Virus record (IMG/VR): IMGVR_UViG_2784746744_000001
Location: 1 to 64,000 of that record
Source: a virus
Strand: one strand, 5' to 3'
DNA length: 64,000 bases
In this document: positions 1-55,494 of the stretch, piece by piece
How the letters are laid out: the number at the start of each line of letters is the position of its first letter
Numbering within the stretch: the stretch's first letter is position 1
The notes under the pieces: generated by a model
The model's database searches: none
What the model was told of the DNA's origin: nothing
The model's input: the letters and a program-made list of their open reading frames with translations, nothing else
Position numbers and translations under genes: made by a program

Positions 1-1113
1 TTATTTCTGGGTCTTTGCAGCTTCAAAGGATTCGAGTTTAGCGATGGCTTGCTCCGCCAACGTCGTCTTGCCGCCGAGGTAGTGAGTATCGAGAATCGAT
101 TCTACGTCCTTGAGGCTGTGACCGGTGATAGACGCGATCTGTGCTGTCGAGCACCCGGCAATCGCCAGCCTTGTAACCGCGGTCCCTCGCAGGTCGTGGA
201 ATGTGAGGTCCGCACAGCCAGCCTTGTTTTTTGCTTTCGACCAGCTGGTGTTGAACCCGTCCTTCGTCCAAGGACGCTTGTGTTTCATGCTGGTGAGGAT
301 AACCGGCGAGATGTGAGGCATACCATCCAGCAGCGTCTTCAGCGGTCCGCCGATCGGTATTTTCACACGTGCGCCAGTCTTGCTTTGCTTCACCTTAATC
401 GAGGAGCCGTCGTAATCGCTCCACGGAGCCGTCAGGAGGTCTCCCTTGCGCTGGCCGGTCCATAGAGCCATCACTACCGCTGCTTTGATCTCAGCGGACG
501 CTATGGCAAAAAGCGCCTCAAGCCTGTCGTCAGTCCAGATGTTCTCTGTCCGATCGGCGCTATATAGCCTGCCGCCGCGTTCCGCGAGGTTGATCGTGAT
601 ACGGCCGCGGTCCTTTGCGCACGAGAGGACGCGTGCGAGCACCGACCAGGCCAGATCTGCGGTGCGTGGCCGGTCGGCCATCGTGTCTCGCCATTCCTTG
701 AACTTGCCGCGAGCGCGCTTGTCCTGCAGCATTGGCAACGTCATGTCGCCAAACTCGTCGCGGATCTGGTCCAGGTAGCGATTGTATTCCTTCTGCGTCT
801 TTGGCGCTGTCTTGGTGAAGTCGGCTGACGCCTTGTACTCGGTGATCAGCTTGTTCATGTTTTCGCCGGGCTCCACGAAGCGATCTTTCGTCGCTTCAAC
901 GAAAGCACGCATGAGAAGCGGATCACCCGGCTGCAGAGGCCGACCAGCCTTGTCCTTGAGGAGTGGGCCGCCACGCCAAGCATAGCAGTAGGTGATGATC
1001 TTACCGCTTGCGAGGCGCTTTTTTACCGTCGCCAGTCCCTTGAGCTTTTCTCGCGTCACGTTCGCGCTCCCATTTGTCGAACTCATCTTCGACGTTGTCG
1101 TTCGCAGCCACAA
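1..1113 (-). CDS. int: tyrosine-type phage integrase
   Basis: 370-aa ORF. C-terminal catalytic region with HDLRGT...H..Y pattern (R-H-R-Y family). Start may be a downstream Met because of the overlap with the Xis-like gene. Confidence 0.9.
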   Translation of the reverse strand: MWLRTTTSKMSSTNGSANVTREKLKGLATVKKRLASGKIITYCYAWRGGPLLKDKAGRPLQPGDPLLMRAFVEATKDRFVEPGENMNKLITEYKASADFTKTAPKTQKEYNRYLDQIRDEFGDMTLPMLQDKRARGKFKEWRDTMADRPRTADLAWSVLARVLSCAKDRGRITINLAERGGRLYSADRTENIWTDDRLEALFAIASAEIKAAVVMALWTGQRKGDLLTAPWSDYDGSSIKVKQSKTGARVKIPIGGPLKTLLDGMPHISPVILTSMKHKRPWTKDGFNTSWSKAKNKAGCADLTFHDLRGTAVTRLAIAGCSTAQIASITGHSLKDVESILDTHYLGGKTTLAEQAIAKLESFEAAKTQK

Positions 1114-1297
1114 GGCCGCTTATCTCGTCCAGCTTCGCGTCGATCGCTCTTCTGTCCCATTTGCGCGTGCCGGGCACAGCCGGCGGCATTTTGTGGGTGG
1201 CCACCCAAAGAGAGAACGTAGACTCGCCGATCCCCAGATAGGCAGCGGCTTCGCGGCGGCCCACGAGGCGAGGGGAGTTGTCGTTGGCGGCGGTCAC
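1001..1297 (-). CDS. AlpA/excisionase-like HTH DNA-binding protein. Carries two AANDN motifs
   Basis: 98 aa. REAAAYLGIGESTFSLWV helix-turn-helix typical of the AlpA/Xis family. Adjacent to the integrase. Confidence 0.7.
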   Translation of the reverse strand: MTAANDNSPRLVGRREAAAYLGIGESTFSLWVATHKMPPAVPGTRKWDRRAIDAKLDEISGLVAANDNVEDEFDKWERERDARKAQGTGDGKKAPRKR

Positions 1298-2724
1298 GGC
1301 CCCAGCTCCCTCGTCTGCGGGGATGGGGCTTCCGAATTGCTATAATGCCAGTCTCGAAACTTCTGTGAAGCTGGCTTAGACTGCCGATTGCGGTATCTTG
1401 CTACGGCTATGGAAAGATGATGGGCAACGAGCGAATGAGTGAGAAAGAATGCTGGTTTTGCAAGAATACTATTCCCGAAAGTGACAAAGGTGCTGTGCAC
1501 ATGCATGTCAGAAATCTCTGGTCTGCTGGAAGGCGTCAGCCTTCTCAGGAGTTTTTTGCACACGCCGAATGCGCGAGCGAACACCTGAGCGTTGGCTACA
1601 AGTTCGATCCCGCCGATCTGCTCAGCTCGTAGTAGGCAGTGAGCGACGCTCGTTTGCGGGGATGGGCCCGCCTTGAAGCGCCCGTAGCCGCTGCAATCGG
1701 GGCAGTTACTTTCGCAATCCTCGATCTCTTCCGTCGTTTTGGCTGAAATGTAGCGGTCCCAATCCTTGATCAGGTTGCCGGTCCCTGAGCATCGGTCGCA
1801 TGGAATGTCGCCATCCGCGCAACCAATCAAGTCCACATGGTTTTCGGGCGCGGGTATTGAAGCAACATCGAGAGACTCTATTTCTCGTGAGCCATGTACT
1901 GTGTTCCGCCGAAGGCCTGCGCCTGGGCTGACCGGTGCGGGCCCTCCTTTCAATTCGCCATTTCGAGCCGCTTCATGACTACTAATGCCGACTGGGTGCG
2001 TTACAGCGCTGTTGAGGAAACCGCGAGCGGATGGAGCGTTATCGAAAACGCCACCGGATTGGCCTTCCTTATCGAGGGTGTGCCGATGGTCTTGCTGCGG
2101 AAAGACGTCGCTTTCGCTCTGGCGCGAACGCTCAACGAAATCGCGACCAAAGGAATAACTGTCCATTGATGCTTCCTGCGGCAGCGATTTCCCGCTCTGA
2201 GTGCTGCCGAGCTTATTAACATCTGCTGATATGTAGTGATCGGAAGGGCGATCCGTTAAAGACGCGCCGTCGCAAGCGCTTTTGGCATCTGCGTCCTCGG
2301 AAGGTCGGCGCACCCCTATTGCTGGCCTTCCATCCACCTGATGCTCGGGTGGAACCATAACTCCCTGAGAGCCTTGTAGAGCGGGCTCGTACCTGCTCAT
2401 CGAGTCTAGAGGCTGGTCGCTGCCCCCGCGATCAGCCTTTGATGCGGCCATAGGTGTCTGGGGTGCGGGTGTCATCCAGTCAGCTTTTTGGCACAATCCA
2501 GCAAATTCGTCGCGATCTTGAAAGCCCACGCAATTGCCAACGGCTAAGCTCGGGTCTCCTCCTGGCTTTGCAATCGGGAGGTCGGACGCATGTTCCCCGA
2601 ATTTCGAGATAGGGGTGGCAAACGTCTGGGCTGTCGCCTCGACTTTGGAAATAGAGGCGGCAGCCAGATCACTATCAGCTGAAGCAGGAGCGGCCGAAGC
2701 CGCCCCCTTGATATCCGCGCGCAT
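1294..2724 (-). CDS. hypothetical protein with two DnaJ-type CxxCxGxG zinc-finger motifs (possibly over-extended ORF)
   Basis: 476-aa ORF. CDRCSGTGN and CPDCSGYGR motifs. The N-terminal part is low-complexity, so the real start may be internal. An AT-richer plus-strand ORF at 1417-1632 competes. Confidence 0.4.
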   Translation of the reverse strand: MRADIKGAASAAPASADSDLAAASISKVEATAQTFATPISKFGEHASDLPIAKPGGDPSLAVGNCVGFQDRDEFAGLCQKADWMTPAPQTPMAASKADRGGSDQPLDSMSRYEPALQGSQGVMVPPEHQVDGRPAIGVRRPSEDADAKSACDGASLTDRPSDHYISADVNKLGSTQSGKSLPQEASMDSYSFGRDFVERSRQSESDVFPQQDHRHTLDKEGQSGGVFDNAPSARGFLNSAVTHPVGISSHEAARNGELKGGPAPVSPGAGLRRNTVHGSREIESLDVASIPAPENHVDLIGCADGDIPCDRCSGTGNLIKDWDRYISAKTTEEIEDCESNCPDCSGYGRFKAGPSPQTSVAHCLLRAEQIGGIELVANAQVFARAFGVCKKLLRRLTPSSRPEISDMHVHSTFVTFGNSILAKPAFFLTHSLVAHHLSIAVARYRNRQSKPASQKFRDWHYSNSEAPSPQTRELGP

Positions 2725-2996
2725 CAGGCTGCCCGCCGGCGCTGCTGATGGCCGTTGTCGTTTGCCGCACGCGGTGCGACTGTGCCGCTGGCAACGCGCA
2801 GCGCGCAGGCAATCACCCGGTGGCGGCTACCACGACGGCGTGGCGCCTCATGCCATTTGGCGACCTGTGCAAGCACGGCCGGCGTGTTGGTGTCAGGGGA
2901 AAGGTTGGCGATGACCTGCAGGGTGTCTTCCTGCGTGGTCGGAGTGAAGTCGTTGTGGAACTGCTGGGCAAGCTTCTTCGCTTCATGCTGTCTCAT
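2724..2996 (-). CDS. hypothetical small protein (C-terminal AANDN motif)
   Basis: 90 aa. Stop overlaps the start of the downstream gene. Contains PRAANDNG. Confidence 0.4.
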   Translation of the reverse strand: MRQHEAKKLAQQFHNDFTPTTQEDTLQVIANLSPDTNTPAVLAQVAKWHEAPRRRGSRHRVIACALRVASGTVAPRAANDNGHQQRRRAA

Positions 2997-3662: not shown

Positions 3663-4388
3663 TTAGTATTTTCCTGATAGAACGATTGGATGGACGCTTA
3701 CGACGTCCTCGCGAGCGAATCGTATTTCGCCTTCTGGATTATATTGACGCAGGACCAAGTCGGAACCCGCCCAGCCCACGAACTCCTTCACATAACCGAG
3801 CGGAGGAAGATCCTCTGAGGCTGGCCTTATCTGCACGATGACGTCGTCGCCTCGACGAGATGGCTTGGTGGGATGAACGTACACGGTTTCGCCAGCCTTG
3901 TAGCGAGGCCACATCGACTCGCCGTCAATGTAGACTGCGTAGGCGTTCGGCACGTTTTGCAGTGAGGGTGGGCAGGCGACATAATCGAGAACGTGGCCAT
4001 TGAAGCTATACTCGCCGCCTTCTCCGCCGACGGCCTCGCCCAATACGGGAAGCATCATTTCCAAGCGATTCGTGGGAATGTGCCCCATAATTCGAGCGTC
4101 AGGAGCGCCCGCGCCTGTGGACGTACCGTTGGTTGGAACCCTGCTAGGCACTGCGAAGAATTTTCCGGCAGCGCTCTCCCCACTCGCTTCCTTCATCAGC
4201 TGTCGCATCTCGTCTTCAGCAATGCCTAGGAGGGCAGCCAGTTCACGCCATTTGCGCGGCGACGATGTGTTTCCGCGGAAGATCTCGGAGATGGCTTGAG
4301 GAGTCATTTCCAGCCTGTCTGCGATCTCCACCTGGCTAATATTTAATTCTTTAGCTCGGGCGACGAGCAGGTCAGACAGCTGGGACAC
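3663..4388 (-). CDS. cI/LexA-like phage repressor (HTH_XRE plus S24 peptidase domain)
   Basis: N-terminal HTH (LNISQVEIADRLEMTPQAISEIFRG). C-terminal LexA-like domain with G-E-S-M Ser and K-A-G-E Lys dyad context. Confidence 0.85.
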   Translation of the reverse strand: MSQLSDLLVARAKELNISQVEIADRLEMTPQAISEIFRGNTSSPRKWRELAALLGIAEDEMRQLMKEASGESAAGKFFAVPSRVPTNGTSTGAGAPDARIMGHIPTNRLEMMLPVLGEAVGGEGGEYSFNGHVLDYVACPPSLQNVPNAYAVYIDGESMWPRYKAGETVYVHPTKPSRRGDDVIVQIRPASEDLPPLGYVKEFVGWAGSDLVLRQYNPEGEIRFAREDVVSVHPIVLSGKY

Positions 4389-4846: not shown

Positions 4847-5635
4847 TCACTCCAAGCTCACCAGATAGTAGTAGTCGCTCTCACGCTCTTCGATCGTGTA
4901 GGTGATGCCGACGGTGGCGTTTGCATTCGTTAGAACGGAAGCTGAGCATGTCGTCAGCTTGCCTGATTGGGAAACTGTCGAAATGTTAGTGACGTCTTTG
5001 ACGCCAACCTTCAGAAGATTCAGCGGAATGTCTGGGAAGATTGCCTTGACCTGCGCGACACTCAACGACGAGTCGCACGTAGGTGTCGCAAGCCCCAGAT
5101 ATGGCCTCGTGAAGCCTGCGGATGCAAATATCGAGAAAACGACCGAAGCCACCCACGCCAGCATTGTGTATTGCTTCATGCGGAGCCGGCGATTTCGAAT
5201 GAAGATATACAGCGGAGCGAGAAGTAGAGCTCCGAAGAATGGTGTCGCTTCTTTGCGCCGTCCACTTGCCCGCACGGCTTTCTCGTCAAGCGCCGCCAAC
5301 ACTCCGTTTGCCGCTGCGTATGCGAGGAAGATAGCCGGAGTTGTCACTCCGCCATATGATTGCGTAAGTACCGCCTCGATCGCCCAGCCGATTGCCGGTA
5401 CCGTAGCGAGTGTCCAAATCCAGAAACTGTTGATCTCTGATATCGGCAGAGGCGGTGGCGAGCCATCATCTCGCAAGTCATCGACCTCGGCGAACCTGCG
5501 CCAGGTGCTGCCGAGAGATCCGGTCCACACCAGCGTGTCGCTGTTGATGGCGCCGCTTTTGAATTTCGAGATTAATTCGTCGCGAGAGACCGGGCCGAAA
5601 CGCCCGCCATTGTCGCTGTAATGCCAGTCAGTCAT
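4847..5635 (-). CDS. membrane protein with N-terminal GYF_2/DUF4339-like domain
   Basis: 262 aa. N-terminal WHYSDNGGRFGPVSRDEL...DTLVW motif, then multiple TM helices and a C-terminal extracytoplasmic domain. Confidence 0.6.
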   Translation of the reverse strand: MTDWHYSDNGGRFGPVSRDELISKFKSGAINSDTLVWTGSLGSTWRRFAEVDDLRDDGSPPPLPISEINSFWIWTLATVPAIGWAIEAVLTQSYGGVTTPAIFLAYAAANGVLAALDEKAVRASGRRKEATPFFGALLLAPLYIFIRNRRLRMKQYTMLAWVASVVFSIFASAGFTRPYLGLATPTCDSSLSVAQVKAIFPDIPLNLLKVGVKDVTNISTVSQSGKLTTCSASVLTNANATVGITYTIEERESDYYYLVSLE

Positions 5636-5903: not shown

Positions 5904-6509
5904 TCACACGCGCTCGGCGAGCACGATGACATGCACCGCGGTAAGATCGCTGACAGTGACTGGATCGCCGGCATAGCGGCTAAGGCGCGCCGTTTCGCCA
6001 AGCTCTTCGAGGCGGCCAATCCATGCCAGTCCACCACGGCTGTGAGCAATCACGTCGTTGCCAGGCTTCGGCCAGACGGTAGGGTCAAGCCACACCTTGC
6101 AGCCGACCTTGAAGACCGGCTCCATCAGCTTAGTGTCAACGATCACTGCGTAGCGGCCATCGGGAACCGCCTTGCGCGTCGAATCAAATTTGAACTTGCC
6201 GTCCTTTCGGTCGGAAACACGACCGTAGGTGCTTGCTTTCGCAAAGGCGGTGAGGGGAGCGATCTTCCCGTCAACCGCGGCATGGCGTGCCTCCTCCACG
6301 AACTCGGCAAGTTTTTCCTCGGAGATGTTGAGGAAGGAAGCCAGCTTTGGGCGGGGAAGGCGAGGCAGGCTGTAGCGCTTCCACGTGCTGAAAGTCTGCT
6401 GCTGCTCGCCCAGTTCGCCGGCCGTTTCTCGGTCGGTCAGATTGCGCTCTCTTTGCTTATCGATAAGCATCTGCGCGAAGCGGGATTTCTTCTCAGGCAT
6501 TCGGTTCAC
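5904..6509 (-). CDS. second HTH_XRE/S24-like repressor (LexA-like C-terminal domain without an obvious catalytic Ser)
   Basis: 201 aa. N-terminal HTH. C-terminal beta-rich LexA/UmuD-like fold motifs (VIVDTKLMEP...GNDVIAH...WIGRL). Confidence 0.75.
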   Translation of the reverse strand: MNRMPEKKSRFAQMLIDKQRERNLTDRETAGELGEQQQTFSTWKRYSLPRLPRPKLASFLNISEEKLAEFVEEARHAAVDGKIAPLTAFAKASTYGRVSDRKDGKFKFDSTRKAVPDGRYAVIVDTKLMEPVFKVGCKVWLDPTVWPKPGNDVIAHSRGGLAWIGRLEELGETARLSRYAGDPVTVSDLTAVHVIVLAERV

Positions 6510-6526: not shown

Positions 6527-6608
6527 ATAATTATAGGGTGCAAACGTAAATTTCAAGTATCCGCAAGCCGACCAAGCTTCGGTGCTTCTTCATCACAAGA
6601 GGAGAGAC

Positions 6609-6917
6609 ATGACAAAAATCACCAGCGATCAGCTGGCGAAAATGCACGACCGTCGCCTGAGAGGCGAAAGCTGTGTCGATATCGCCAGATCCTTCGGTCT
6701 TAACGAGATGACCGTCTACCAGCGTCTTCGCCGCGAGTTCGGCCTTGATGTCTACAAATTCCCTCCGCCTGTTGCTGCCAACGACAACGTGCCAGGCCGA
6801 GTTCGTAAAATGACTGCACACAACGGCGGATGCTCGACACTGAGCGGCAAGATGCCGGTCACTCTGGTTCGTATCCCGACCCTTGACGGTCCGGCGCCGA
6901 CGCAGGTGGCAGCATGA
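6609..6917 (+). CDS. Cro/CII-like HTH regulator (sigma70 region-4-like HTH). Contains AANDN
   Basis: Start MTKIT preceded by AAGAGGAGAGAC. HTH motif CVDIARSFGLNEMTVYQRLR. Confidence 0.55.
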   Translation: MTKITSDQLAKMHDRRLRGESCVDIARSFGLNEMTVYQRLRREFGLDVYKFPPPVAANDNVPGRVRKMTAHNGGCSTLSGKMPVTLVRIPTLDGPAPTQVAA

Positions 6918-7198
6918 GCCAGTGCGATTGCGAGACTTTTGACGCCGGTGACTGGGTCGAATGCCAGCTTGATACCGACCTTTTTGGTATCGTCGTCGGT
7001 GATGCTGATTTCGGTCGCATCGTGAGCGTACAGCTCGCCGGCTCCCTCGAAATCCGTCCATTCTTCGCCGTCACACTGCGCCACGTCGCTCCCAAGGAGC
7101 CGCCGGCTGTCGAGAACGACGACACCAACGTCATCCACGTGGACTTCACCAAGCCGCGTGCGCTGGATGCCAACACCACCACAGAAGGAGCTGCGTAA
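6914..7198 (+). CDS. hypothetical protein
   Basis: 94-aa ORF, ATGA-coupled to the upstream gene. Confidence 0.4.
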   Translation: MSQCDCETFDAGDWVECQLDTDLFGIVVGDADFGRIVSVQLAGSLEIRPFFAVTLRHVAPKEPPAVENDDTNVIHVDFTKPRALDANTTTEGAA

Positions 7199-7199
7199 C

Positions 7200-8399
7200 A
7201 TGGGGAAGTTTGAAAAAGGTCAGTACGTCCGCAGAACCAAGGGCAGTTCGCTGCACACTGCTGCTGGGATCCATGAGGCCGGTTTTGTCGGTCAGGTTTC
7301 TGCAGTCGAGATTTCGACCTGCGGCGCAGAGCTGCTCTTCACGAACGGCCAGCGCGGCATCGCCGACAAGTATGAGCCGTGGGTGCCAAAGGTCGGTGAT
7401 CGGGTGACCACCAATATGACCACACGCGTCAATATCGAGCGGCATTGGAACCATCATTTCCGACGTTCCGAAGGCGATATCATCAATGGTGCACTTGTTG
7501 TGACCAGTGTTTCGGAAAAAAACACCGGCAGCAATATCGGCCTTAGCAACAAGGAAGGCCGCAGCTTCTTCTTCATGCCCGAATCGACACTGCGACCTGC
7601 CGATCCGGCTCCCGCCGCCCTCACCATCGAAGCCGGCAAGTTCTACAAGACGCGCGATGGCCGGAAGGTCGGGCCGATTGTGAAGGCGCAATGGGGCTAC
7701 GGACCAGATTGGCTGTGGTCGGTTGAGCATCCGTTCGTCGCCTCCTGCGGCAAGGCGTGGCGCGCAGATGGCACCTTCTCGACAGTAGCTGGCCGCTCGG
7801 ATGAGGCTGACCTCGTTGCCGAATGGGTCGACGAGCCGGCCAGCAATGACAACGGCGGCATCGCCAGTCTGATTGGCAAGTCCGTCACGGTTCAGATCAC
7901 GAAGCCGAAGTTCGAAGTCGGCGATCGCGTGAATAAAACGGACTGGCAGAGTTACAGCCCGAAGGGATATCTCGTGACACAAATCACGTCGGACAGGCTT
8001 TGGCTGGATCCCGGCAATGGGATGGCGCCGGTCAGCTACAAACTGCCGGATGAGGAATTCTGGTTAGTTACAACGAAGCCTGCCACCACCCCCGCCATCG
8101 TCGCCCTCATCGAAAACGGCCAGCCTAAGCCGTCGTCCACCCCGCACGTCCATGCCGACGAAGCCAAGGCTGGCAAGGAAGCGGCCCGTCTTGCCGGTGT
8201 CTACAAGGGCAAGGAGTTCGGCGTCTTCGTCCTGACCTCGAGTGCCCAGCAGGCCGCGCCGGTCTACAAGCACGAATGGCAGCGCCTGGCTGCCAATGGC
8301 AACAAGATCGGCGCCATCAAGGAACTGCGGGCCGCCAACGACCTGACGCTCAAGGGCGCCAAGGATGCCGTCGAGCACTGGCTCGCAACGGCCGCCTAA
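7200..8399 (+). CDS. hypothetical protein with C-terminal ribosomal L7/L12-CTD-like segment. Contains ASNDN
   Basis: 400 aa. C-terminal KIGAIKELRAANDLTLKGAKDAVE resembles the L7/L12 C-terminal domain motif. Confidence 0.5.
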   Translation: MGKFEKGQYVRRTKGSSLHTAAGIHEAGFVGQVSAVEISTCGAELLFTNGQRGIADKYEPWVPKVGDRVTTNMTTRVNIERHWNHHFRRSEGDIINGALVVTSVSEKNTGSNIGLSNKEGRSFFFMPESTLRPADPAPAALTIEAGKFYKTRDGRKVGPIVKAQWGYGPDWLWSVEHPFVASCGKAWRADGTFSTVAGRSDEADLVAEWVDEPASNDNGGIASLIGKSVTVQITKPKFEVGDRVNKTDWQSYSPKGYLVTQITSDRLWLDPGNGMAPVSYKLPDEEFWLVTTKPATTPAIVALIENGQPKPSSTPHVHADEAKAGKEAARLAGVYKGKEFGVFVLTSSAQQAAPVYKHEWQRLAANGNKIGAIKELRAANDLTLKGAKDAVEHWLATAA

Positions 8400-8463
8400 C
8401 CACTCCACCACCATCACCACAGCACGGCCGTGCGGCTAACCACCGCACGGCGAGAGGAGACCT

Positions 8464-8667
8464 ATGTCCAGACATCGCTCGACGACCAATCCCTACGCGA
8501 CCAGCCTGACCCGAACCGGCAAGCTGGATATGACCAACCGCAAGCCGTACCGTACGGCTGCCCAGCAGGCCGACGCCCGCTCGACGGCTGTGAAGGTGAA
8601 CGGCACTTTCGTGTCGAACGCACCGGTCAGCTACCACCGCTCGCCGAAAAAGCAGGTGGCCGCATGA
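8464..8667 (+). CDS. hypothetical small basic protein
   Basis: 67 aa. Strong leader GAGAGGAGACCT before the ATG. Confidence 0.5.
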   Translation: MSRHRSTTNPYATSLTRTGKLDMTNRKPYRTAAQQADARSTAVKVNGTFVSNAPVSYHRSPKKQVAA

Positions 8668-8906
8668 GCAACGTTTTCAGCAAGCTCGCCGCGCGCGAAT
8701 ACGTCAACGACACCAAGCTCGGTCTGCCATCGACCGACCGCGCGCACTTCGACCGCCGCAAGCACCTGATGTCCGTCCTTGCCGGTGGCAAAGGCTGGCG
8801 CGTCCCGTCCAAGGAACCGGCTCGTCGCGCTGATGGCACCACGCGAGGCGAACGCAAGCGCGCGCTGCGCGAGCGCACTTTCGCTCATCTCCGGGTGGCA
8901 GCATGA
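8664..8906 (+). CDS. hypothetical protein (80 aa)
   Basis: Internal Met of ORF 8430-8906. ATGA overlap with the preceding gene. Confidence 0.45.
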   Translation: MSNVFSKLAAREYVNDTKLGLPSTDRAHFDRRKHLMSVLAGGKGWRVPSKEPARRADGTTRGERKRALRERTFAHLRVAA

Positions 8907-10185: not shown

Positions 10186-10959
10186 ATGGCTATTTCCCTT
10201 GGTAGCTTGAACAGCACCAGAAACAATAAGCCTCCGATCGGCGTCATCTATGGCGTCCACGGCGTCGGCAAGACCGCATTGGCGGCCGAGTTTCCCGATC
10301 CGTACTACCTCCCCACCATGGGCGAGGAGCCGCCGGACGACATCGATATGCCGTCGCCGGGCACCGCTGAGAGCCTTGAAGACATCCTCGATGTCATTGG
10401 CTGGCTTCTCACCGAGGAGCACGACCGAAAGACCTTCATCCTCGACAGCGTTGATGGCGCCGAGAGCCTGGTCTGGAAAGCGACTTGCGCGCGCCTTGGC
10501 CTCAACAGCATCGAGGATGCGGGTTTCGGTAAGGGTTATGTCGAGGCGGACACCGAGTGGCGCGAGCTTCTCGCCGGTCTGCAGGCGCTGCGAGACGCAG
10601 GCATCGCCGTCGTGCTCATTGCTCACACTGAGATCACGCGGTTCGACAGCCCGACCAGCGATCCGTTCTCGCGCTACGGCATCAAACTCCACAAGCGCGC
10701 TTCGGCGCTCGTGCAGGAATGCGCCCAGTTCGTCGGCTTCATCAACTACCGCCATACGCTGAAAGAGAAGGAGGTCGGCTTCAACAAGAAGGTCTCGCAC
10801 GCCGAAGGCAGTGGCGAGCGTCAGATCCACCTCGAGGAGCGTCCCGGCTTTCTCGCCAAGTCGCGGTACGGCACGCCGGCAGCCATCACTTTCAAGAAGG
10901 GCAAGGGCTGGGAGGAGCTGGCCAAATACATGCCTGAGCCGCTCGGGAAGGCCGCCTGA
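10186..10959 (+). CDS. Sak4-like AAA_24 RecA-fold ATPase (phage ssDNA annealing/recombination)
   Basis: Walker A GVHGVGKT. Typical Sak4 length of 257 aa. Followed by DUF669. Confidence 0.75.
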   Translation: MAISLGSLNSTRNNKPPIGVIYGVHGVGKTALAAEFPDPYYLPTMGEEPPDDIDMPSPGTAESLEDILDVIGWLLTEEHDRKTFILDSVDGAESLVWKATCARLGLNSIEDAGFGKGYVEADTEWRELLAGLQALRDAGIAVVLIAHTEITRFDSPTSDPFSRYGIKLHKRASALVQECAQFVGFINYRHTLKEKEVGFNKKVSHAEGSGERQIHLEERPGFLAKSRYGTPAAITFKKGKGWEELAKYMPEPLGKAA

Positions 10960-11123: not shown

Positions 11124-11339
11124 ATGGCAATTTTCAAGTCGGATTCGCTCGACGGCATCCTGAACACCTTCAACAAAACGATCACGCGCCTCGATGCCTT
11201 CTCGGCTAAGCGCCAGCAGGATGCCGACGCAGCGGCCACCCTCATCAAGCAGAAGCAGGACGAACAGAAGGCAGCTCTCGACGACGTCACCAAGTCGGCC
11301 GCCGTTCGCTCGAAGATCAGTGACCTGATCGCCGCCTAA
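11124..11339 (+). CDS. hypothetical protein
   Basis: 71 aa. Leader ACACAGAGGAGA. Confidence 0.45.
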   Translation: MAIFKSDSLDGILNTFNKTITRLDAFSAKRQQDADAAATLIKQKQDEQKAALDDVTKSAAVRSKISDLIAA

Positions 11340-11375: not shown

Positions 11376-11963
11376 ATGGCCAAGATTGGCGTAAGAGTTG
11401 AAGCCACCGAAGAGAACACGCAGCAGCGCGATTTCTCGAACCTTCCAAACGGCGACTATCAGCTGGAAATCAGCGCCTCCGAGATCAAGGAGAAGAACGA
11501 GAACACCCGCGACCACAGCATCAACCTCAGCGTGACGATTGACGTCCTCGCGCCGGAGGAGCTCAAAGGCCGCAAGATTTTCTCGAACTACAACCTGCAG
11601 CATCCGAATTCGCAGGTGCAGGAAATCGGACAGCGTCAGTTTGCCTGCCTCCTTCGCTCGCTCGGCATGCAGGACGCGCCGGAGGATTCCGACGAGTTGC
11701 ACTTCATCTCGTTCTTCGCCCGTATCGGCATGGGTAAGGACAGCAAGGAAAAGAACGCCGACGGCTCGCCGAAGTACGCCGCGCGCAACGAGTTGAAGAA
11801 ATACTTCTATCCGGATGAAGGCAACTTGCCGGAGCCGAAGGTGGACGCCGGTCCCGTCGCGGCAAACGACAATCGTCGCGCGCCTGCCGCATCCAACGAC
11901 AATCGTCAGCCGCCGCAGGCCGACGCCAAGCCGGCCGCCCGTCGTCCTTGGGGCAACAAGTAA
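11376..11963 (+). CDS. DUF669-family phage protein (SSB-like partner of Sak4). C-terminal tail has two ANDN motifs
   Basis: N-terminal MAKIGVRVEATEENTQ...NGDYQLEI is typical of DUF669. Confidence 0.6.
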   Translation: MAKIGVRVEATEENTQQRDFSNLPNGDYQLEISASEIKEKNENTRDHSINLSVTIDVLAPEELKGRKIFSNYNLQHPNSQVQEIGQRQFACLLRSLGMQDAPEDSDELHFISFFARIGMGKDSKEKNADGSPKYAARNELKKYFYPDEGNLPEPKVDAGPVAANDNRRAPAASNDNRQPPQADAKPAARRPWGNK

Positions 11964-13124: not shown

Positions 13125-13438
13125 TGGCAACCATCGAGCAGGAAGGCGGGCTGTGGCGGCCCGCCAACGCAACTGAAGGCCATAATTTCGAGAATAACTG
13201 GTGTCGTCACTGCGCGAATCGCGATGGCGCTGGGGATTGGGAAGATGAGTTTGGCAGTCACGTCGATGGCTCATGTCCGATCGCCGAAGCGATGTTCTGG
13301 TCGCCCCAGTTTCAGCCGGACGAACTCGTGATTCGACATGGCCAGCCTTGGTGCTTGGCATTTCGGCAGGATCCGAAGGTGCCAGCGCGGTGCCTTTTCA
13401 CGGAGGAGATGCCGTTTGGCCCCACTACCCAAATCTGA
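13124..13438 (+). CDS. hypothetical Cys/His-rich protein
   Basis: 104 aa. ATGA-coupled to dnaN. Confidence 0.45.
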   Translation: MATIEQEGGLWRPANATEGHNFENNWCRHCANRDGAGDWEDEFGSHVDGSCPIAEAMFWSPQFQPDELVIRHGQPWCLAFRQDPKVPARCLFTEEMPFGPTTQI

Positions 13439-14351
13439 ATCCAGCACAGTTCGCGCCATATACGCCGCCTATGAGGCTGCCGCGAGCTCGTGGGACAGCC
13501 TCGGCATTTCGGTTGGCGAGGCAAACGCACCTTGCGATCGACAGCTTTGGTATGCGTTTCGCTGGGCATCGCCGCTGGAAAAGCACCACGGCCGCCAGCT
13601 GCGCCTTTTCGCCACTGGTAACATCGAGGAAGACAGGCTCGTGGCCGACCTCGAAGCGATCGGCGTGGACGTCTATGGCCAGCAGGATCGGATTCGTCTG
13701 GTTGGAAGCCATGTCCGTGGCAAGTGCGACGGCAAGGCCATGGGGATAGTCGAAGCGCCGAAGACCGAGCACTTGCTGGAGTTCAAGTCGAGCAACACGA
13801 AGGGCATGAAGCTAATCGTAAAGGAAGGCTGCGAGAAAGCGAAACCGCTCCACTACGGCCAGTGTCAGCTGGGTATGCACGCTTTCGGCCTGTCACGATG
13901 CCTGTATCTCGTCAGCTGCAAGGATGACGATACGCTCTATGCCGAGCGCCTAGTCTACGATCCAGAGTTTTGCATGCGGCTGCTGGCACGCCTTGAGCGG
14001 ATCATCAACGCGCCTGAGCCGCCGTCACGCATCAGCGAAGACCCAGAGTGGTTCGAATGCTTGTTTTGCAAGCACAAGCCAGTCTGCAAGCAGTCGGCGT
14101 GGCCACGCGTGACCTGCCGATCATGTATCCACTCGACGCCTGAGATGGGCGGCGATGGCCACTGGTCATGCGCTCGGTGGGCAAAGCCGATCTCGTTCGA
14201 TGAACAAAAAGAGGGATGCCCTACGCACCTCACCATTCCAGCCTTAGTGCCGGGAGAGCAGATCGACGTCGACGAAGAGGCCGAGACCATCACCTATCGC
14301 CTTACCAACGGCGATCTTTGGACTGACGGCGCCACCAACGCCGCAGCCTGA
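13416..14351 (+). CDS. PD-(D/E)xK nuclease, Cas4/RecB-like with C-terminal Cys cluster (TTG start inferred)
   Basis: D...EFK motif (GIVEAPKTEHLLEFKSS). C-terminal CKHKPVC...C...C cluster. GGAGGAGA 5 nt before the TTG. Confidence 0.6.
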   Translation: MAPLPKSESSTVRAIYAAYEAAASSWDSLGISVGEANAPCDRQLWYAFRWASPLEKHHGRQLRLFATGNIEEDRLVADLEAIGVDVYGQQDRIRLVGSHVRGKCDGKAMGIVEAPKTEHLLEFKSSNTKGMKLIVKEGCEKAKPLHYGQCQLGMHAFGLSRCLYLVSCKDDDTLYAERLVYDPEFCMRLLARLERIINAPEPPSRISEDPEWFECLFCKHKPVCKQSAWPRVTCRSCIHSTPEMGGDGHWSCARWAKPISFDEQKEGCPTHLTIPALVPGEQIDVDEEAETITYRLTNGDLWTDGATNAAA

Positions 14352-14373: not shown

Positions 14374-14931
14374 ATGACCCCGGCGAACGATAACCGCCCT
14401 ACACCAAAAAGGCCGGCCGGCTTCGACGCCGCGCTCGAATCCTACCTGCCTTCGCTCCGGAAGCAGGCAAACTATATGGCCGGCACACGTGAGGACGGCG
14501 AAGTCCTCCTGCATGAGACCGTCCTGCGGATGCTCCGCTGCGCCGATAACTGCCGCGTGGAGACGTTCAAAACCTGGGCGCAGTACAAGCTGCTCAACAC
14601 CCACAGTGGCATGAGGGCGGCAGCCCGCAGCCAGTGCCGGTTCGCGCCGACGACGTCACTTACTCCTGCCAACGATAACGACCCGGACGAATTCGCTCGC
14701 ACGATCTCCCAGATGCGGACGGCTGCGACGCAGGAAGCGGATGCTGACTTTGCGGATGCGCTCCGGGTTCTCGGCACCATCAAGGACGGTGACTTGCTTC
14801 TCCGTCGCGCGATGGGTTTTGAGCTCAAGGTCATCGGCGACGAGCTCGGCGTGAGCAAGGAGCGCGTCCGCCAGCGTGAAGAGGCCGCAAGAACGGCGTT
14901 CTGCGCAGCGATGCAGCGGAGTGTCGCCTGA
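14374..14931 (+). CDS. ECF-type sigma-70 family sigma factor (regions 2 and 4). Two ANDN motifs
   Basis: Region 2-like LLHETVLRMLR. Region 4 HTH LKVIGDELGVSKERVRQ. Confidence 0.65.
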   Translation: MTPANDNRPTPKRPAGFDAALESYLPSLRKQANYMAGTREDGEVLLHETVLRMLRCADNCRVETFKTWAQYKLLNTHSGMRAAARSQCRFAPTTSLTPANDNDPDEFARTISQMRTAATQEADADFADALRVLGTIKDGDLLLRRAMGFELKVIGDELGVSKERVRQREEAARTAFCAAMQRSVA

Positions 14932-16721
14932 TGGGTCTTCGATACTATCAGGAAGATGCTGTTGCAGCACTGTTCGATTATTGGGGCGAGGAGGCGGGCA
15001 ATCCGTTGATCGATCTCGCGACCGGCACCGGCAAATCCATGGTCATGGCCACGGTTATCCGCCAGCTTGTCGAAGGCTGGCCGGACATGCGCATCATGGT
15101 CGTGACGCACGTAGCGGAATTGATCGAACAGAACTTCCTCGAACTGCTCAGCGTCTGGAATCAGGCGCCGGCAGGTATCTTCTCGGCCGGCCTCAATCGC
15201 CGTGATGCTCGCAGCCAGATCATCTTCGCCGGCATTCAGACCGTCTGGAACAAGGCCGACCTGATCTGTGGCGCGCGCGTCGTCAATGGTGAGAAGGTTT
15301 ATGACCGACCTATCGACGTCGTTCTTGTCGATGAGTGCCATCTGATTCCGAAAAACAGCGACACTCAATACGGCCAATTCTTCCGCGTCGTGCGCGAGGT
15401 GAATCCGGATCTCAAGATAGTCGGGCTTACCGCGACGCCGTTTCGCCTAGATAGCGGTCGCCTCGATGAGGGCGAGGACCGGATGTTCGACCGCGTGGTC
15501 TACACCTATGGTATCGCCGACGGGGTACGCGACGGCTATCTCGCCCCGCTGTCGTCGAAGCACACCGCCACGGAACTGAGCATGAAGGGCGTGGGCCGTC
15601 TGGGCGCGGACTATAAGCAGTCGGCCATGCAGGCGGCCGTGGATAAGCCGGACGTCACGCAGGCGGCCGTTGACGAGATCGTAGCGAAGGGCGCGGACAA
15701 ACGTTCCTGGCTTTGCTTCTGCTCTGGCGTCGAGCATGCTGAGCACGTTCGCGACGAGATCCGGTCACGCGGAATCAGTTGCGAAATGATCACCGGCGAC
15801 ACGCCCAAGGAAGAGCGCCGGCGCATCATCGAAGACTTCAAGGCCTTCCGGATCCGCGCGTTGACGAACAATTCGGTTTTGACGACCGGCTTCAATCACA
15901 AGGGCGTCGATCTCATCGCGGCTTTGCGGCCGACGCTGTCCGCATCCCTTTACCTGCAGATGATGGGGCGAGGGACGCGCGTGCTCTATGCGCCGGGTAT
16001 GTCGCTGGAAACGCCGGACGAGCGCCGCGCTGCAATTGCCGCTGGTCCGAAGCCATCCTGCTTGGTGCTCGACTTCGCCGGTCTCGTAGACAAGCACGGA
16101 CCAGTGGACATGGTGCAGCCGAAGGAGCCGGGCAGCGGTGATGGCGAAGCGCCGATGAAGATTTGCCCGGTCGATCGTCAGGACAAGAACGACAACTATG
16201 GGTGCGGTGAGAAGCTGCATGCATCGGCGCGGGTCTGCTCATGCTGCGATTATGAGTTCGACATCGACGATAGCCCAAAGATCGCCGGCACAGCTGCCGA
16301 CGTTCCGATCATGACGATGGCTGAGCCGGAATCGCGCAACGTCACCAGTCGCACGTTCCGATTCCATGAAGGGAAGGGCGATAAGCCACCGTCAGTGAAG
16401 GTTACCTTCATGTCTGGCATGACGGCCATCAATGAGTGGCTATGCCCCCAGCATTCCGGTTTTGCAAAGACGAAGGCGGATCGTTTCTGGCTGGCGCACG
16501 GTGGCAACCGGCCTTTCCCACGCGAAGTGATGGAGTGGCTAGAAAGGCAGAGCGAGCTGAAGGAAACAGTGGAGATCACCGTCCAGCCGCGCGGAAAATA
16601 CTGGGATGTGGTCGGGCATGTCGTCGGAGATTATGCAGCGGCAAACGACAACGATGAGCCGCCGGCTAACGATAATCGGCCGGCTTGGACGGACGAATTG
16701 GAGGACGGGATTCCGTTTTGA
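14931..16721 (+). CDS. SF2 DEAD/DEAH-box DNA helicase (res-subunit-like) with C-terminal zinc ribbon. C-terminal ANDN x2
   Basis: Motif I TGTGKS. Motif II VLVDECH. Motif III LTATP. Cys cluster near the C-terminus. Confidence 0.8.
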   Translation: MGLRYYQEDAVAALFDYWGEEAGNPLIDLATGTGKSMVMATVIRQLVEGWPDMRIMVVTHVAELIEQNFLELLSVWNQAPAGIFSAGLNRRDARSQIIFAGIQTVWNKADLICGARVVNGEKVYDRPIDVVLVDECHLIPKNSDTQYGQFFRVVREVNPDLKIVGLTATPFRLDSGRLDEGEDRMFDRVVYTYGIADGVRDGYLAPLSSKHTATELSMKGVGRLGADYKQSAMQAAVDKPDVTQAAVDEIVAKGADKRSWLCFCSGVEHAEHVRDEIRSRGISCEMITGDTPKEERRRIIEDFKAFRIRALTNNSVLTTGFNHKGVDLIAALRPTLSASLYLQMMGRGTRVLYAPGMSLETPDERRAAIAAGPKPSCLVLDFAGLVDKHGPVDMVQPKEPGSGDGEAPMKICPVDRQDKNDNYGCGEKLHASARVCSCCDYEFDIDDSPKIAGTAADVPIMTMAEPESRNVTSRTFRFHEGKGDKPPSVKVTFMSGMTAINEWLCPQHSGFAKTKADRFWLAHGGNRPFPREVMEWLERQSELKETVEITVQPRGKYWDVVGHVVGDYAAANDNDEPPANDNRPAWTDELEDGIPF

Positions 16722-20357: not shown

Positions 20358-20436
20358 CATCGTGGCCTCCCGACCCAGCAATACGACACCACCCAACGCT
20401 CAACCAACGCGCTGGTTTCACCACAGAGGAGAGAAT

Positions 20437-24593: not shown

Positions 24594-24614
24594 GCCGGTA
24601 CCTCCGGAGGGGTT

Positions 24615-31627: not shown

Positions 31628-31635
31628 ACTCCCAT

Positions 31636-49021: not shown

Positions 49022-50482
49022 TTGGCTGACCTATCGTATTTCCATGGCGTGCAGGTGCTCGAAAGCCCTGACAGCCCGTCGCTTCTGCGCGTCACCAACT
49101 ACGGCATTTCGTTCGTCAATGGCACCGCACCGGGCGCTGACGCTGCGACATTCCCGCTGAACAAGCCGACGCTGATCACGAACCTGTCGCAGGCCGCGCT
49201 GCTCGGCACGCAGGGCACGCTTTACAACGACGTGGTCACCATCTTTGGTGAGGGCGGATCGATTGTCATCGTCAACCGTGTTGAGCACAGCGAAACTGCC
49301 GCAACTCTGCAGGCAAACCTGATCGGTGACGCCGGCCAGCGCACCGGCCTCTACTCGGCACTGCGCGCCAAGGCACTTCTTGGCTATCAGCCGCGCGTGA
49401 TCGTCACCGCCGGCAACACAGGCACGTGGATCGAGGGCGGCCTTCTGTCCGTCGCCATTTCTGGCTCTGGCAGCCTGCTGACCGAGGCGCCGACGGTTGC
49501 CTTCACCGGTGGCGGTTCTGATGCCGGCAAGGTTTTGCCGACCGCTGTTGCGGTGCTCGGTACCGGCGTAAATGCCGGCAAGGTCGTGTCCGTTACGGTT
49601 ACCAGCGCGGGCAAGGGCATGACACAGGCTCCCGTTGTTGCCTTCACCGGTGGCGGCTCTGAGTCTGGCAAGGTGCTCCCGACCGCGACCGCAAACATCG
49701 GCGACGTCGGCAACCCCTTCGTTTCGGCACTTGCGACCATCACGGAGCAGGTTAAGGCTCGTGCCTACATCGCCGGCCCGAACACGACCAACGCCGATGC
49801 CGTGCGCTTCCGCGCTACCATTAACAGCGGTCGTATCCTTCCCATTGACCCGGCTGGCATCAAGAACGTCGATGGCGTGCCTGTTATCGTGCCGATTGCG
49901 CCGGTCTTCGCGGGCATTCGTTCGCGTGTTGTCGGTTCGGCTGAGGGCGTTTCCGGCTCGGTATCGAACAAGGAAATCCGCACGCTGGACGGCGTCGCAC
50001 GCACGATCGCTTATCCGACCGACAGCAACTACCTGAACGACAAGCAGGTCGCGACGGTCATCAATGAGAATGGCCTACGCACTTGGGGCTCGCGCCTCGC
50101 GACATCGGATGCCCTCTGGCAGTTCGATAGCGTCCGCGCCACCGCCGACATGATCAACGAGAGCCTCGAGCAGATCTACTTCAAGTGGGTCGACAAGAAG
50201 TTCACGAAGGCCAACCTGAAGATGATGATCGAGGACGGCAATGCCGCACTGCGCGTCTTCAAGAAGAACGACGACATCCTCGGCGGCAAGGTCTGGCTCT
50301 CCGATATCAACCAGCCCACGGTCAATGCCAACGGCCAGGTCTATCTGAATGTTGAGTTCGAGCCCGTCGGCCTGATGGAGCAGATCAAAATCACCACGCA
50401 TCGCAACATCCTCTACTACCAGATCCTTCTGGATGAGGTTCGTGGCGCGATCGACAACGGCCCGCTCACGCTGGCCGCGTAA
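49022..50482 (+). CDS. contractile tail sheath protein (TTG start)
   Basis: 486 aa. P2 FI-like. Leader CAGAGGAGG. Confidence 0.85.
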   Translation: MADLSYFHGVQVLESPDSPSLLRVTNYGISFVNGTAPGADAATFPLNKPTLITNLSQAALLGTQGTLYNDVVTIFGEGGSIVIVNRVEHSETAATLQANLIGDAGQRTGLYSALRAKALLGYQPRVIVTAGNTGTWIEGGLLSVAISGSGSLLTEAPTVAFTGGGSDAGKVLPTAVAVLGTGVNAGKVVSVTVTSAGKGMTQAPVVAFTGGGSESGKVLPTATANIGDVGNPFVSALATITEQVKARAYIAGPNTTNADAVRFRATINSGRILPIDPAGIKNVDGVPVIVPIAPVFAGIRSRVVGSAEGVSGSVSNKEIRTLDGVARTIAYPTDSNYLNDKQVATVINENGLRTWGSRLATSDALWQFDSVRATADMINESLEQIYFKWVDKKFTKANLKMMIEDGNAALRVFKKNDDILGGKVWLSDINQPTVNANGQVYLNVEFEPVGLMEQIKITTHRNILYYQILLDEVRGAIDNGPLTLAA

Positions 50483-54118: not shown

Positions 54119-54334
54119 ATGATGAGCACGATCGTAACCACGAAACAGGGACAGACCGTCGATTTGGTCTGCCTCCTTCACTATGGCCGCACGGCCGAAG
54201 TCACCGAGATGGTGCTCGCAGCCAATCCGGACATCGCGTCGTTGGGCATCGTCCTGCCGCTAGGCACAAAGGTCGTGATGCCTGCTGCCCCCTTGCGCGA
54301 GACGGCGCCAAAACTCGTCAGTTTGTGGGATTAA
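54119..54334 (+). CDS. tail protein X (P2 gpX-like, LysM-like)
   Basis: 71 aa. Confidence 0.6.
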   Translation: MMSTIVTTKQGQTVDLVCLLHYGRTAEVTEMVLAANPDIASLGIVLPLGTKVVMPAAPLRETAPKLVSLWD

Positions 54335-54336
54335 CT

Positions 54337-55494
54337 ATGCATCCGCTCATTGAGGTGAAAATTGATGGCAACCCAGTTGCCGGCGCTTTTTACGAACGTC
54401 TCGTTTCGATCACTGTCACTGACAAGGAGGGTCTCTCCTCCGATACGATCGACATCGAGCTGAACGACGGGCCGCCTTCTTTTCTTGCGATCCCTCGCAA
54501 AGGGGCGATTATCGACGTGCGCCTTGGATATGGCAAGCTTCGGAGTCTCGGTCAGTACACTGTCGATAAAGTCTCGGCCAAGTGTCTTCCTTATTCGCTT
54601 TCCGTTTCTGGGAAGGCGAGGGACATGCGTAGCGGCAAATTCAAAGAACGGCAGGAACGCCATTGGGACAAGGTGAAAGTCAAGGATCTCGTCAAAGAAT
54701 TGGCGGGGGAGGCCGGACTGGGCGCCTATGTGGACCCTGATATCGGCGAGCACGAATACGACTGGGTCGCTCAGCAGGACGAATCCAACATTCACTTTCT
54801 GCGTCGCCTATCCGACCGTCACAACGCCCTATGCAAGGTTAAGGACGGCCGCTTGCTGTTCTCCGCTAGAGGCTCCGGCAACTCAGCATCCGGCCAGTTT
54901 ATCGGCTCGGTCGTCGTTTCGCCTTCGAAGATTATCCAAGGGACTTGTAGTTTCGAGGCCAACGATCGCACGAAGTATTCGAAGGTCGTCGCCTACTATC
55001 AGGACAACGATAAGGCGCAGCGTGTCGAGATCGAGGCCGACGGTGATGCAGATGGCGATAGCGTCTTCCGCATTCCAGAGCCGTTCGCCAGCGTCAAGGA
55101 AGCAGACAAAGCCGCCCAGTCGAAGGCGAAAGCGCTCAAGCGAGGCGAGGGGGCTGCATCAGTCACCGTGGTCGGTGACACGGCCATCATCGCAGGAGCT
55201 CCGCTACTCTTTGGGGATGTGAGGCCGGGCCTTGATGGCGTGCCTTATGTTATCGACACGGCGACACACACCTATCGAAAAACTGAAGGTTATCGCACGG
55301 CCATCAGTGCGAAGCTGTACGATGGCAAGTCTGGCGGGAGCAAGAAATCGGCCGCTAACGACAACGATCCGGATAGCACGTCGGAGACCAGCAAGTCGGA
55401 AGACAAGGTCGCACCAAATGCGCCAGCAGGAACGCCGGCTACTCCATCGGAATGGACAGGGCAGCGACGTTACGGTCGAACGGACGAGAACTAA
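54337..55494 (+). CDS. late control protein D (P2 gpD-like tail/baseplate hub). C-terminal AANDN tail
   Basis: About 385 aa. N-terminal gpD family motifs. Confidence 0.8.
   Translation: MHPLIEVKIDGNPVAGAFYERLVSITVTDKEGLSSDTIDIELNDGPPSFLAIPRKGAIIDVRLGYGKLRSLGQYTVDKVSAKCLPYSLSVSGKARDMRSGKFKERQERHWDKVKVKDLVKELAGEAGLGAYVDPDIGEHEYDWVAQQDESNIHFLRRLSDRHNALCKVKDGRLLFSARGSGNSASGQFIGSVVVSPSKIIQGTCSFEANDRTKYSKVVAYYQDNDKAQRVEIEADGDADGDSVFRIPEPFASVKEADKAAQSKAKALKRGEGAASVTVVGDTAIIAGAPLLFGDVRPGLDGVPYVIDTATHTYRKTEGYRTAISAKLYDGKSGGSKKSAANDNDPDSTSETSKSEDKVAPNAPAGTPATPSEWTGQRRYGRTDEN

Follow-up and report, generated by a model that had tools for sequence, protein, structure and literature searches.

Why would a bacterial virus write the same few residues into the tails and linkers of many unrelated proteins? 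The question is raised by positions 1 to 64,000 of IMG/VR virus record IMGVR_UViG_2784746744_000001 (the window), a 64-kb temperate phage genome of 59% G+C, in which a sequence-only reading had noticed a recurrent tetrapeptide, [A/S]NDN, and had known of no described motif like it. The peptide does have a counterpart: (A)ANDN is, residue for residue, the first five residues of the transfer-messenger RNA (tmRNA, ssrA) tag of alpha-proteobacteria in the form in which it is appended. The early proteins of the same phage are also enriched for a C-terminal Ala-Ala (-AA), the other end of such a tag. We propose that the phage probably mimics its host's ssrA tag, and that this mimicry would deliver early phage proteins to the adaptor SspB and the protease ClpXP.

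The minus-strand left arm of the window encodes an integrase, an Xis-like helix-turn-helix (HTH) protein and a CI-like repressor with HTH and S24 domains. Pfam assignments in the rightward early operon include a Cro-like regulator, an SPFH protein, an AAA_24 protein, a DUF669 protein, a beta sliding clamp and a Cas4-type exonuclease homologue, together with a sigma factor, a superfamily 2 (SF2) helicase, N6 and C5 DNA methyltransferases and a Prim-Pol/AAA_25 primase-helicase. Late genes follow, with a Nu1/gpA terminase, a lambda-type portal, an S78 protease, and capsid and tail genes. The nearest relatives are prophages of Neorhizobium, Endobacterium, Rhizobium, Agrobacterium and Sinorhizobium, and the gene order is that of the model temperate phage 16-3 of Sinorhizobium meliloti; a megablast search of the window against the phage collection gave no match. 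Our gene set (78 proteins, 19,092 residues) comes from home-made gene calls, in which the choice of start codon affects neither the C-termini nor the frames of the motifs.

A six-frame scan recovered the claimed recurrence as 18 [A/S]NDN sites in 13 proteins, with every site at its claimed place and every protein among those first named. Composition-matched shuffling within each of the 78 proteins (5000 rounds) gave a mean of 0.24 ± 0.50 sites and never more than 3 (Poisson P of about 1e-27). ANDN is the most frequent tetrapeptide of the window proteome (15 occurrences, 0.15 expected), AANDN is found 10 times (0.02 expected), and NDN is the most over-represented tripeptide (18-fold). The corresponding DNA word, AAYGAYAAY, lies in the coding frame of the coding strand in 23 of 23 cases, with none out of frame and none antisense. 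The codons vary synonymously in roughly genomic proportions: Ala is written with each of its four codons, Ser as AGC or TCC, Asn as AAC or AAT and Asp as GAC or GAT. Because the words are confined to the frame and the codons vary, the signal is in the peptide, as the sequence-only reading had held, and a DNA-level element such as a protein-binding or methylation word is ruled out by the frame, strand and codon tests. By Pfam coordinates every site falls in a terminal tail or an interdomain linker, outside the conserved domains, as had also been claimed. The sites are as follows.

1277-1288, minus strand: Xis-like HTH protein (open reading frame, ORF, 1001-1297), AANDN at residues 3-7 (VTAANDNSP), N-terminal to HTH_17 (residues 16-54)
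1094-1105, minus strand: Xis-like protein, second site, VAANDNVEDEF, downstream of the HTH
2724-2768, minus strand: ORF 2724-2996, complete C-terminal look-alike of the ssrA tag, AANDNGHQQRRRAA before the stop, 9 residues after NDN
6777-6788, plus strand: Cro-like regulator (6582-6917), VAANDNVP after the HTH; the protein ends ...TQVAA (6909-6917)
7842-7853, plus strand: protein 7158-8399, ASNDN; the protein ends ...LATAA; position kept in 4 orthologues with diverged flanks
11862-11903, plus strand: DUF669 protein (11376-11963; domain at residues 14-124), tandem AANDN-x5-ASNDN in the C-terminal tail
14383-14394, plus strand: sigma-70-like factor (14374-14931), N-terminal MTPANDNRP
14668-14679, plus strand: sigma factor, second site, PANDNDPDEF in the linker between regions 2 and 4
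16641-16676, plus strand: SF2 helicase (14931-16721), tandem AANDN-DEP-PANDN in the disordered C-terminal tail
21715-21762, plus strand: N6/N4 DNA methyltransferase (20320-21762), complete terminal tag look-alike, VANDNREGDLFGVAA before the stop, 10 residues after NDN
24389-24433, plus strand: C5 DNA methyltransferase (22385-24433), complete terminal tag look-alike, AANDNVSDVSLRAA before the stop, 9 residues after NDN
25680-25691, plus strand: primase-helicase (24588-26852), ASNDN in the linker between Prim-Pol and AAA_25; the protein ends ...FVRAA
30120-30131, plus strand: protein 30012-30932, AANDNNPEDVEEL near the N-terminus
30873-30884, plus strand: protein 30012-30932, second site, VAANDNFEQALE, 15 residues before the C-terminus
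35154-35165, plus strand: large terminase TerL (33093-35219), PPPANDNPAPP in the C-terminal tail
55354-55365, plus strand: gpD-like baseplate protein (54325-55494), SAANDNDPDS in the C-terminal tail

The resemblance to the host tag extends beyond five letters. The tag of Agrobacterium tumefaciens is ANDNNAKEYALAA (Table 1 of PMC12493166) and that of Caulobacter, as appended, is AANDNFAEEFAVAA (PMC9393093). The product of trans-translation in Rhizobiaceae is A-ANDNNAKEYALAA, with the leading Ala borne by the tmRNA itself, and tmRNA genes that ARAGORN calls in viral contigs, two-piece genes of the alpha type included, encode ANDN plus 9 residues. Eighty phage instances from the window and its relatives give the consensus [A/P]-A-N-D-N-x-P, in which position -3 varies and specificity begins at position -2 (A in 45 of 80, P in 25 of 80). 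The boundary at position -2 is the exact place of the Ala added by tmRNA, which supports the identification with the tag.

Spacing follows the same model. Three window proteins carry full look-alikes, in which AANDN or VANDN is followed by 9-10 residues that end in AA at the stop (tails of 14-15 residues). NDN is followed by 9 residues in the C5 methyltransferase, 10 in the N6 methyltransferase and 9 in ORF 2724-2996, and by 9 in host-type tags. Among instances with at most 14 residues after NDN, 11 of 18 are in proteins ending in -AA, and the commonest spacing is 9-10; in relatives the distance from NDN to the C-terminus ranges from 6 to 13 residues and is mostly 9-10. Further complete look-alikes in related prophages, each directly before a stop codon, are VAANDNRLPEMAVAA, AANDNSPAGDLLRAA, AANDNIPEISIAAA and PANDNQETPIANAA.

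In E. coli the tag, AANDENYALAA, consists of separable modules, with the first seven residues bound by the SspB adaptor and ALAA by ClpX; with SspB as tether, a substrate can be degraded despite a weak ClpX module or none at all (PMC9963277, PMC8512704), and two copies of AANDENY without ALAA suffice for SspB-tethered degradation (PMC8512704). In the window, searches with ARAGORN and Rfam detected no tmRNA gene and only the transfer RNA (tRNA) genes tRNA-Met and tRNA-Trp; the motif sites themselves fall within long ORFs. A Pfam scan of about 40 window proteins gave no hit to an SspB or Clp protein, and E. coli SspB showed no similarity to any window ORF by phmmer.

The second signal is the C-terminal -AA. 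Thirteen of the 78 window proteins end this way; Ala frequency predicts about 1.0, and an empirical background of 5.4% (10 of 186 proteins from an Agrobacterium plasmid segment and two control phages) predicts about 4. The excess lies in the early genes (2724-26852), where 12 of 29 proteins end in -AA (P = 1.3e-8 against the 5.4% background), compared with 1 of 31 late proteins; about a third of early proteins carry one or both halves of the tag. The enrichment had gone unnoticed in the sequence-only reading and is not predicted by a model of docking to the sliding clamp. The ends (LAA, VAA, RAA and others) fit the form of the ssrA-like ClpX degron known as C-motif 1, from which we infer that the proteins may be unstable in a ClpXP-dependent manner. 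Besides the carriers listed above, they comprise the following.

7190-7198, plus strand: end of ORF 6914-7198, -AA, no ANDN
8898-8906, plus strand: end of ORF 8430-8906, -VAA
10951-10959, plus strand: end of the AAA_24 (Sak4-like) protein 10186-10959, -KAA
11331-11339, plus strand: end of ORF 11124-11339, -IAA
14343-14351, plus strand: end of the Cas4-type exonuclease-like protein 13338-14351, -AAA
19403-19411, plus strand: end of the HNH/AP2 protein 18860-19411, -RAA
50474-50482, plus strand: end of the late protein 49022-50482, -LAA, the sole late gene with -AA

The same pair of signals recurs across related phages. Early regions of five Rhizobium/Agrobacterium prophages (L001-L005) each hold 5-12 [AS]NDN against 0.06-0.09 expected, and -AA stands at the end of 5-12 of their 17-32 proteins. 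In phage 16-3 the annotated early half holds 15 against 0.10 expected, with 16 of 63 proteins ending in -AA; its carriers include Xis (MRVAANDN...), the Cro-like p072, the DUF669 protein p078, the Cas4 exonuclease, both methyltransferases and the helicase. A metagenomic prophage (L016) has both signals too. The motif suggested for a search among Rhizobiales prophages is thus present in the five prophages and in 16-3. Orthologue alignments show it kept in place while the flanks have diverged. All six Cro-like orthologues end in VAA, and that of L004 carries the full tag VAANDNRLPEMAVAA; homologues of the AAA_24 protein in IMG/VR and in L016 have full tags running from AANDN to AA.

The helicase gives the deepest comparison. 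Among its best 120 homologues (56-93% identity; hosts in Rhizobiaceae, Mesorhizobium, Aureimonas, Xanthobacteraceae and others), 99 have NDN within the last 48 residues, often in 2-3 copies, and 72 sequences yield the tail consensus ANDNxxxxANDNxxxxxxxxDDxIPF in a tail that is otherwise hypervariable. In an AlphaFold2 model of the helicase (72 homologues; mean predicted local distance difference test score, pLDDT, 85.6), residues 568-584, which contain both motifs, have pLDDT below 50. The motif is accordingly predicted to be accessible in an unstructured segment of the helicase, the sole carrier modelled.

Homologues from outside this group of phages delimit the tail. The terminase and helicase homologues of other hosts stop where the tail starts: terminases of other phages align to TerL residues 18-657 only, and the helicases of Pseudomonas, Variovorax and Alteromonas have no such tail. 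A helicase homologue of an E. coli Seuratvirus keeps an acidic ...VPF tip without ANDN or AANDE. Controls (a small sample of about 40,000 residues) contained no [AS]NDN at all, and few -AA ends: 4 of 93 proteins in Rhizobium phage RHph_X2_26, which is of lytic type and shares homologues of the AAA_24, DUF669, exonuclease, helicase and primase genes; 3 of 50 in Rhodobacter phage RcKemmy; and 3 of 43 in 50 kb of Agrobacterium plasmid pAtC58. RHph_X2_26, RcKemmy and the tail-less homologues rule out that the motif simply goes with the protein families or belongs to Rhizobiaceae phages in general.

A scan of the IMG/VR collection for the complete tag found AANDN-x7-AA-TGA in 112 stretches and the composition-matched permutation AADNN-x7-AA-TGA in none. 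Twenty-seven of the 112 matches have short upstream frames, and ARAGORN calls a tmRNA in 9 of 16 such loci tested. In about 82 matches the pattern forms the end of a long ORF. Clustered by sequence, these ORFs give 33 groups, among them methyltransferases (MT-A70 and C5), AAA_24 proteins, regulators with an HTH, a portal protein and an HNH-like protein; the tail of the window's C5 methyltransferase has a near-identical counterpart in locus L022. Eighty long-ORF loci (736 kb, six frames) contain 195 [AP]ANDN and 0 permuted words. Their pooled gene calls (766 proteins) have 146 [AS]NDN against 2.0 expected and 197 -AA ends against 9.8 expected, figures that are biased upward by the one selected match per locus. 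The gamma/beta-type pattern AANDE-x4-AA-TAA gave 51 matches, nearly all in tmRNA genes, and in this limited test of one spacing and one stop codon the protein-encoded mimicry looks specific to the alpha (ANDN) type.

The mechanism that we favor takes these observations together: the identity with the tag, the native spacing, the enrichment, the disorder of the helicase tail, conservation despite divergence of the flanks, the bias to early genes, and recurrence within the lineage. The motif would be a copy of the adaptor-binding N-terminal half of the host tag, written into disordered tails and linkers of early proteins, many of which end in the -AA-COOH that would be engaged by ClpX. Host SspB-alpha would bind AANDN and tether the carrier to ClpX. 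Complete tails (AANDN, about 9 residues, AA-COOH) should lead to degradation like that of ssrA-tagged proteins. Carriers with a split signal (the Cro-like regulator, protein 7158-8399 and the primase) might be tuned, slower clients that depend on SspB or are remodelled by ClpX, and those with ANDN alone (Xis, DUF669, the sigma factor, the helicase, protein 30012-30932, TerL and gpD) may likewise be tuned clients, SspB-dependent or remodelled. The outcome would be short-lived early, regulatory, replication and DNA-modification proteins beside stable virion proteins, and the logic could lie in transient early functions and in limiting the toxicity of methyltransferases, Xis and Cro. A broader claim, to which we give about even chances, is that a large temperate alpha-proteobacterial phage lineage that includes 16-3 has given both tag halves to its early proteins, from a quarter of them to nearly half, making SspB-ClpXP a proteome-wide timer.

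Several points weigh against this proposal. Seven of the 13 carriers (the Xis-like protein, DUF669, the sigma factor, the helicase, protein 30012-30932, TerL and gpD) do not end in -AA, and their degradation is less obvious. The motif on TerL and on the gpD baseplate protein, and the full tag on an IMG/VR portal, sit oddly with the stability expected of such proteins. Each half of the tag can evolve without the other, because a Labrenzia sp. prophage (L017; Logan SRR10297987_61) with the same replication module and a clamp has -AA at the end of 8 of 35 proteins and no NDN. The restriction of the motif to one lineage would also fit a phage-encoded partner. Finally, that the carriers bind SspB and are degraded by ClpXP is something we infer from sequence, and SspB as the receptor is extrapolated from E. 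coli and from the titles and citations of papers: Lessner et al. (2007) reportedly describe an SspB orthologue for tmRNA-tagged proteins "from alpha-proteobacteria", and a structure of Caulobacter SspB is said to come from Chien et al. (2007). Used as a phmmer query in the PDB, E. coli SspB did not reach the Caulobacter structure, and our literature search found nothing on SspB in Rhizobiales.

The signals might instead serve as decoys. ANDN tails would then occupy SspB and -AA ends would load ClpXP, slowing other substrates by queueing, stabilising phage or host proteins, or disturbing the ClpXP-dependent cell cycle of the alpha-proteobacterial host. However, complete tags that keep the native spacing are common and seem made for degradation; it is on early proteins that both signals cluster, as turnover would have it; and one dedicated inhibitor would titrate SspB more cheaply than motifs on 13 proteins. 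We consider decoys unlikely, although they would suit the seven of 13 carriers that have ANDN without a ClpX-type C-terminus, as well as the tandem motif copies in abundant replication proteins. They would also agree with the finding that in E. coli a lone AANDENY is bound by SspB but does not lead to degradation (PMC8512704), and with the reported control of the S. meliloti cell cycle by ClpXP (PMC11929396).

Docking onto a phage hub protein, either the beta clamp or a lineage-specific protein, was the leading idea of the sequence-only reading. What survives of that reading is its general form, since the peptide behaves as a short linear motif and a degradation tag was among the options listed; the partners that it favored are unsupported, and no result points to the SPFH protein or the protease. 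Most carriers do act on DNA, the feature is restricted to a lineage, and clamp and motif occur together in the window, in L001-L005, in 16-3 and in L016, with neither in RHph_X2_26 or RcKemmy. The Labrenzia prophage separates the two, and because this clamp-bearing relative has no NDN the clamp is an unlikely receptor. Clamp-binding motifs are hydrophobic pentapeptides of the QL[SD]LF or QxxLxxF type, which the polar ANDN does not resemble, and separate (Q)ADLF clamp-like motifs already adjoin ANDN in the methyltransferase tails. The carriers also include Cro, the sigma factor, gpD and a portal protein, and no window protein is present in all ANDN-positive relatives and absent from both ANDN-negative ones. 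A hub would in addition leave the identity with the tag, the 9-residue spacing to AA-COOH and the -AA enrichment unexplained, and we regard it as improbable.

A covalent processing or modification site, such as one for protease cleavage or Asn deamidation, seems to us very improbable: the sites do lie in exposed, disordered segments and Asn-rich motifs are chemically labile, but we know of no protease with ANDN specificity, the S24 repressor and S78 prohead protease families cleave at other sites, and neither the match to the tag nor the -AA ends would be explained. Chance, compositional bias or a DNA-level word is virtually excluded by the shuffles, the confinement to the sense frame, the synonymous codon variation, the retention of the motif between diverging flanks and the empty permuted controls.

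Mimicry of the ssrA tag has partial precedents. Like the host ssrA-SspB-ClpXP system, the phage uses the tag's first five residues, an -AA-COOH end, a gap of about 9 residues and modular adaptor and protease parts. Unlike the host tag, the phage sequence is encoded in the gene rather than added by trans-translation, its halves are often apart or alone, and the adaptor half is also found at N-termini and in linkers, often in tandem. Actinobacteriophages with integration-dependent immunity carry ssrA-like C-terminal tags on repressor and integrase (PMC4557955). In mycobacteriophage BPs (repressor gp33 and integrase), as proposed here, the tag is phage-encoded, and a host protease sets the protein level and with it the outcome of lysis or lysogeny. 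BPs differs in tagging 1-2 proteins with a degron at the extreme C-terminus only, which is removed by integration, whereas here 12 of 29 early proteins end in -AA, 13 proteins carry the motif and the adaptor half is conspicuous. Both the CI-like repressor (3663-4388), which ends ...VLSGKY, and the integrase, which ends ...AAKTQK, are untagged, contrary to what integration-dependent immunity of the BPs type would require.

Flynn et al. (2003) and the Mu and lambda literature reportedly show that MuA, lambda O and the Mu repressor are recognised by ClpX through short terminal peptides, for degradation or remodelling. These too are phage proteins of replication and recombination that become ClpX clients by way of terminal peptides, but they are isolated cases without an SspB-type motif, whereas here the signal spreads across the early proteome and copies the adaptor site. 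The mimicry of short linear motifs by eukaryotic viruses offers a further parallel, in that unrelated viral proteins have again and again acquired, in their disordered regions, a host recognition peptide of 4-5 residues that outlasted its flanks; here the virus is bacterial, and the sequence copied is a quality-control tag, not a signalling or trafficking motif. A literature search without most subscription journals found no paper that connects ssrA, SspB or ClpX with phage 16-3 or with AANDN in phage proteins, and we know of no report of the adaptor-binding half of the tag in phage proteins. The phage stands apart from the known systems in three respects: the adaptor half is the conspicuous element, 13 proteins carry it at sites that include N-termini, linkers and tandem repeats, and the repressor and integrase are left untagged.

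If the proposal is true, phages copy short host recognition peptides proteome-wide, as eukaryotic viruses do, and a simple rule would tie gene class, early or late, to a built-in protein lifetime. It would reveal natural clients of alpha-proteobacterial SspB beyond ssrA-tagged fragments, and the adaptor half that stands alone at N-termini and in linkers would, to our knowledge, be the first natural SspB-alpha client motif described outside ssrA. At a sufficiently high load the tags might also brake the host's ClpXP-dependent cell cycle. Practical returns could include ready-made tunable degrons for rhizobia and Agrobacterium, and the combination of AANDN with -AA ends may serve as an annotation signature for unstable phage proteins and possibly for host range. 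Phage 16-3 in Sinorhizobium meliloti and the Agrobacterium prophages are tractable systems for such work.

Some carriers have further conserved features beside the motif. In the Cro-like regulators of the window, L001-L005 and 16-3 (p072), an invariant M-x-x-(H/S)NGGCST-x-SG-x-MPV lies between the ANDN site and the VAA end. The helicase ends in ...EDGIPF (16704-16721), an acidic D-[DE]-[IV]-P-F tip that is kept in most of the 120 homologues listed and is similar in the E. coli Seuratvirus homologue (...DDPDYVPF). The C-terminal tip of bacterial single-stranded DNA-binding protein (SSB) is DDDIPF, and through its SSB-like tip the helicase may dock on SSB-tail-binding proteins. In the methyltransferases a (Q)ADLF-like sequence stands between ANDN and the terminal AA, as REGDLFGVAA in the window (21730-21762) and, in relatives, as PIQADLFGEAA, PVQADLFGVAA and RPADLFSEAA (L004, about 15064-15111; L005, about 15184-15225 and about 15993-16043). 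It is similar to motifs that bind beta clamps, among them QADMF and QLSLF, and because the phage encodes its own clamp these tails may combine clamp docking with a degradation signal.

Other genes of the window merit a record. A two-gene Septu anti-phage defence system occupies 16736-18648 on the minus strand, between the helicase and the next early genes.

17398-18648, minus strand: PtuA (PADLOC match, E = 2.6e-151)
16736-17401, minus strand: PtuB, an HNH protein (E = 1e-68)

With a third-position G+C content (GC3) of 0.54-0.58, below that of their neighbours, and with neither ANDN nor an -AA end, the pair looks like an inserted moron. Beside the CI-like repressor (3663-4388, minus strand), a second conserved minus-strand protein at 5904-6509 has no Pfam hit; its C-terminus (...AVHVIVLAERV) resembles that of the repressor (...SVHPIVLSGKY), and it may be a second S24-like regulator. 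Accessory genes unusual in a phage encode a GYF_2-domain protein (4847-5635, minus strand), a PRC-barrel protein (27362-27928, plus strand) and a protein with a weak match to response-regulator receivers (28279-28677, minus strand). The genes for tRNA-Met (CAT) and tRNA-Trp (CCA) lie at 31551-31707, directly upstream of the packaging genes.

Genes for tmRNA, one-piece and two-piece, with tags of the ANDN or ANDE type, occur in many viral contigs of the collection (L029, L035, L055, L071, L075, L096, L105, L120, L127 and L130-L180), where they are phage-encoded or lie at prophage ends. In one contig (L134, 13720-13755, minus strand) the exact E. coli tag, AANDENYALAA, follows 20 in-frame sense codons, which reach back to the edge of the contig, and could be a protein-encoded tag of the E. 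coli type or an engineered sequence.

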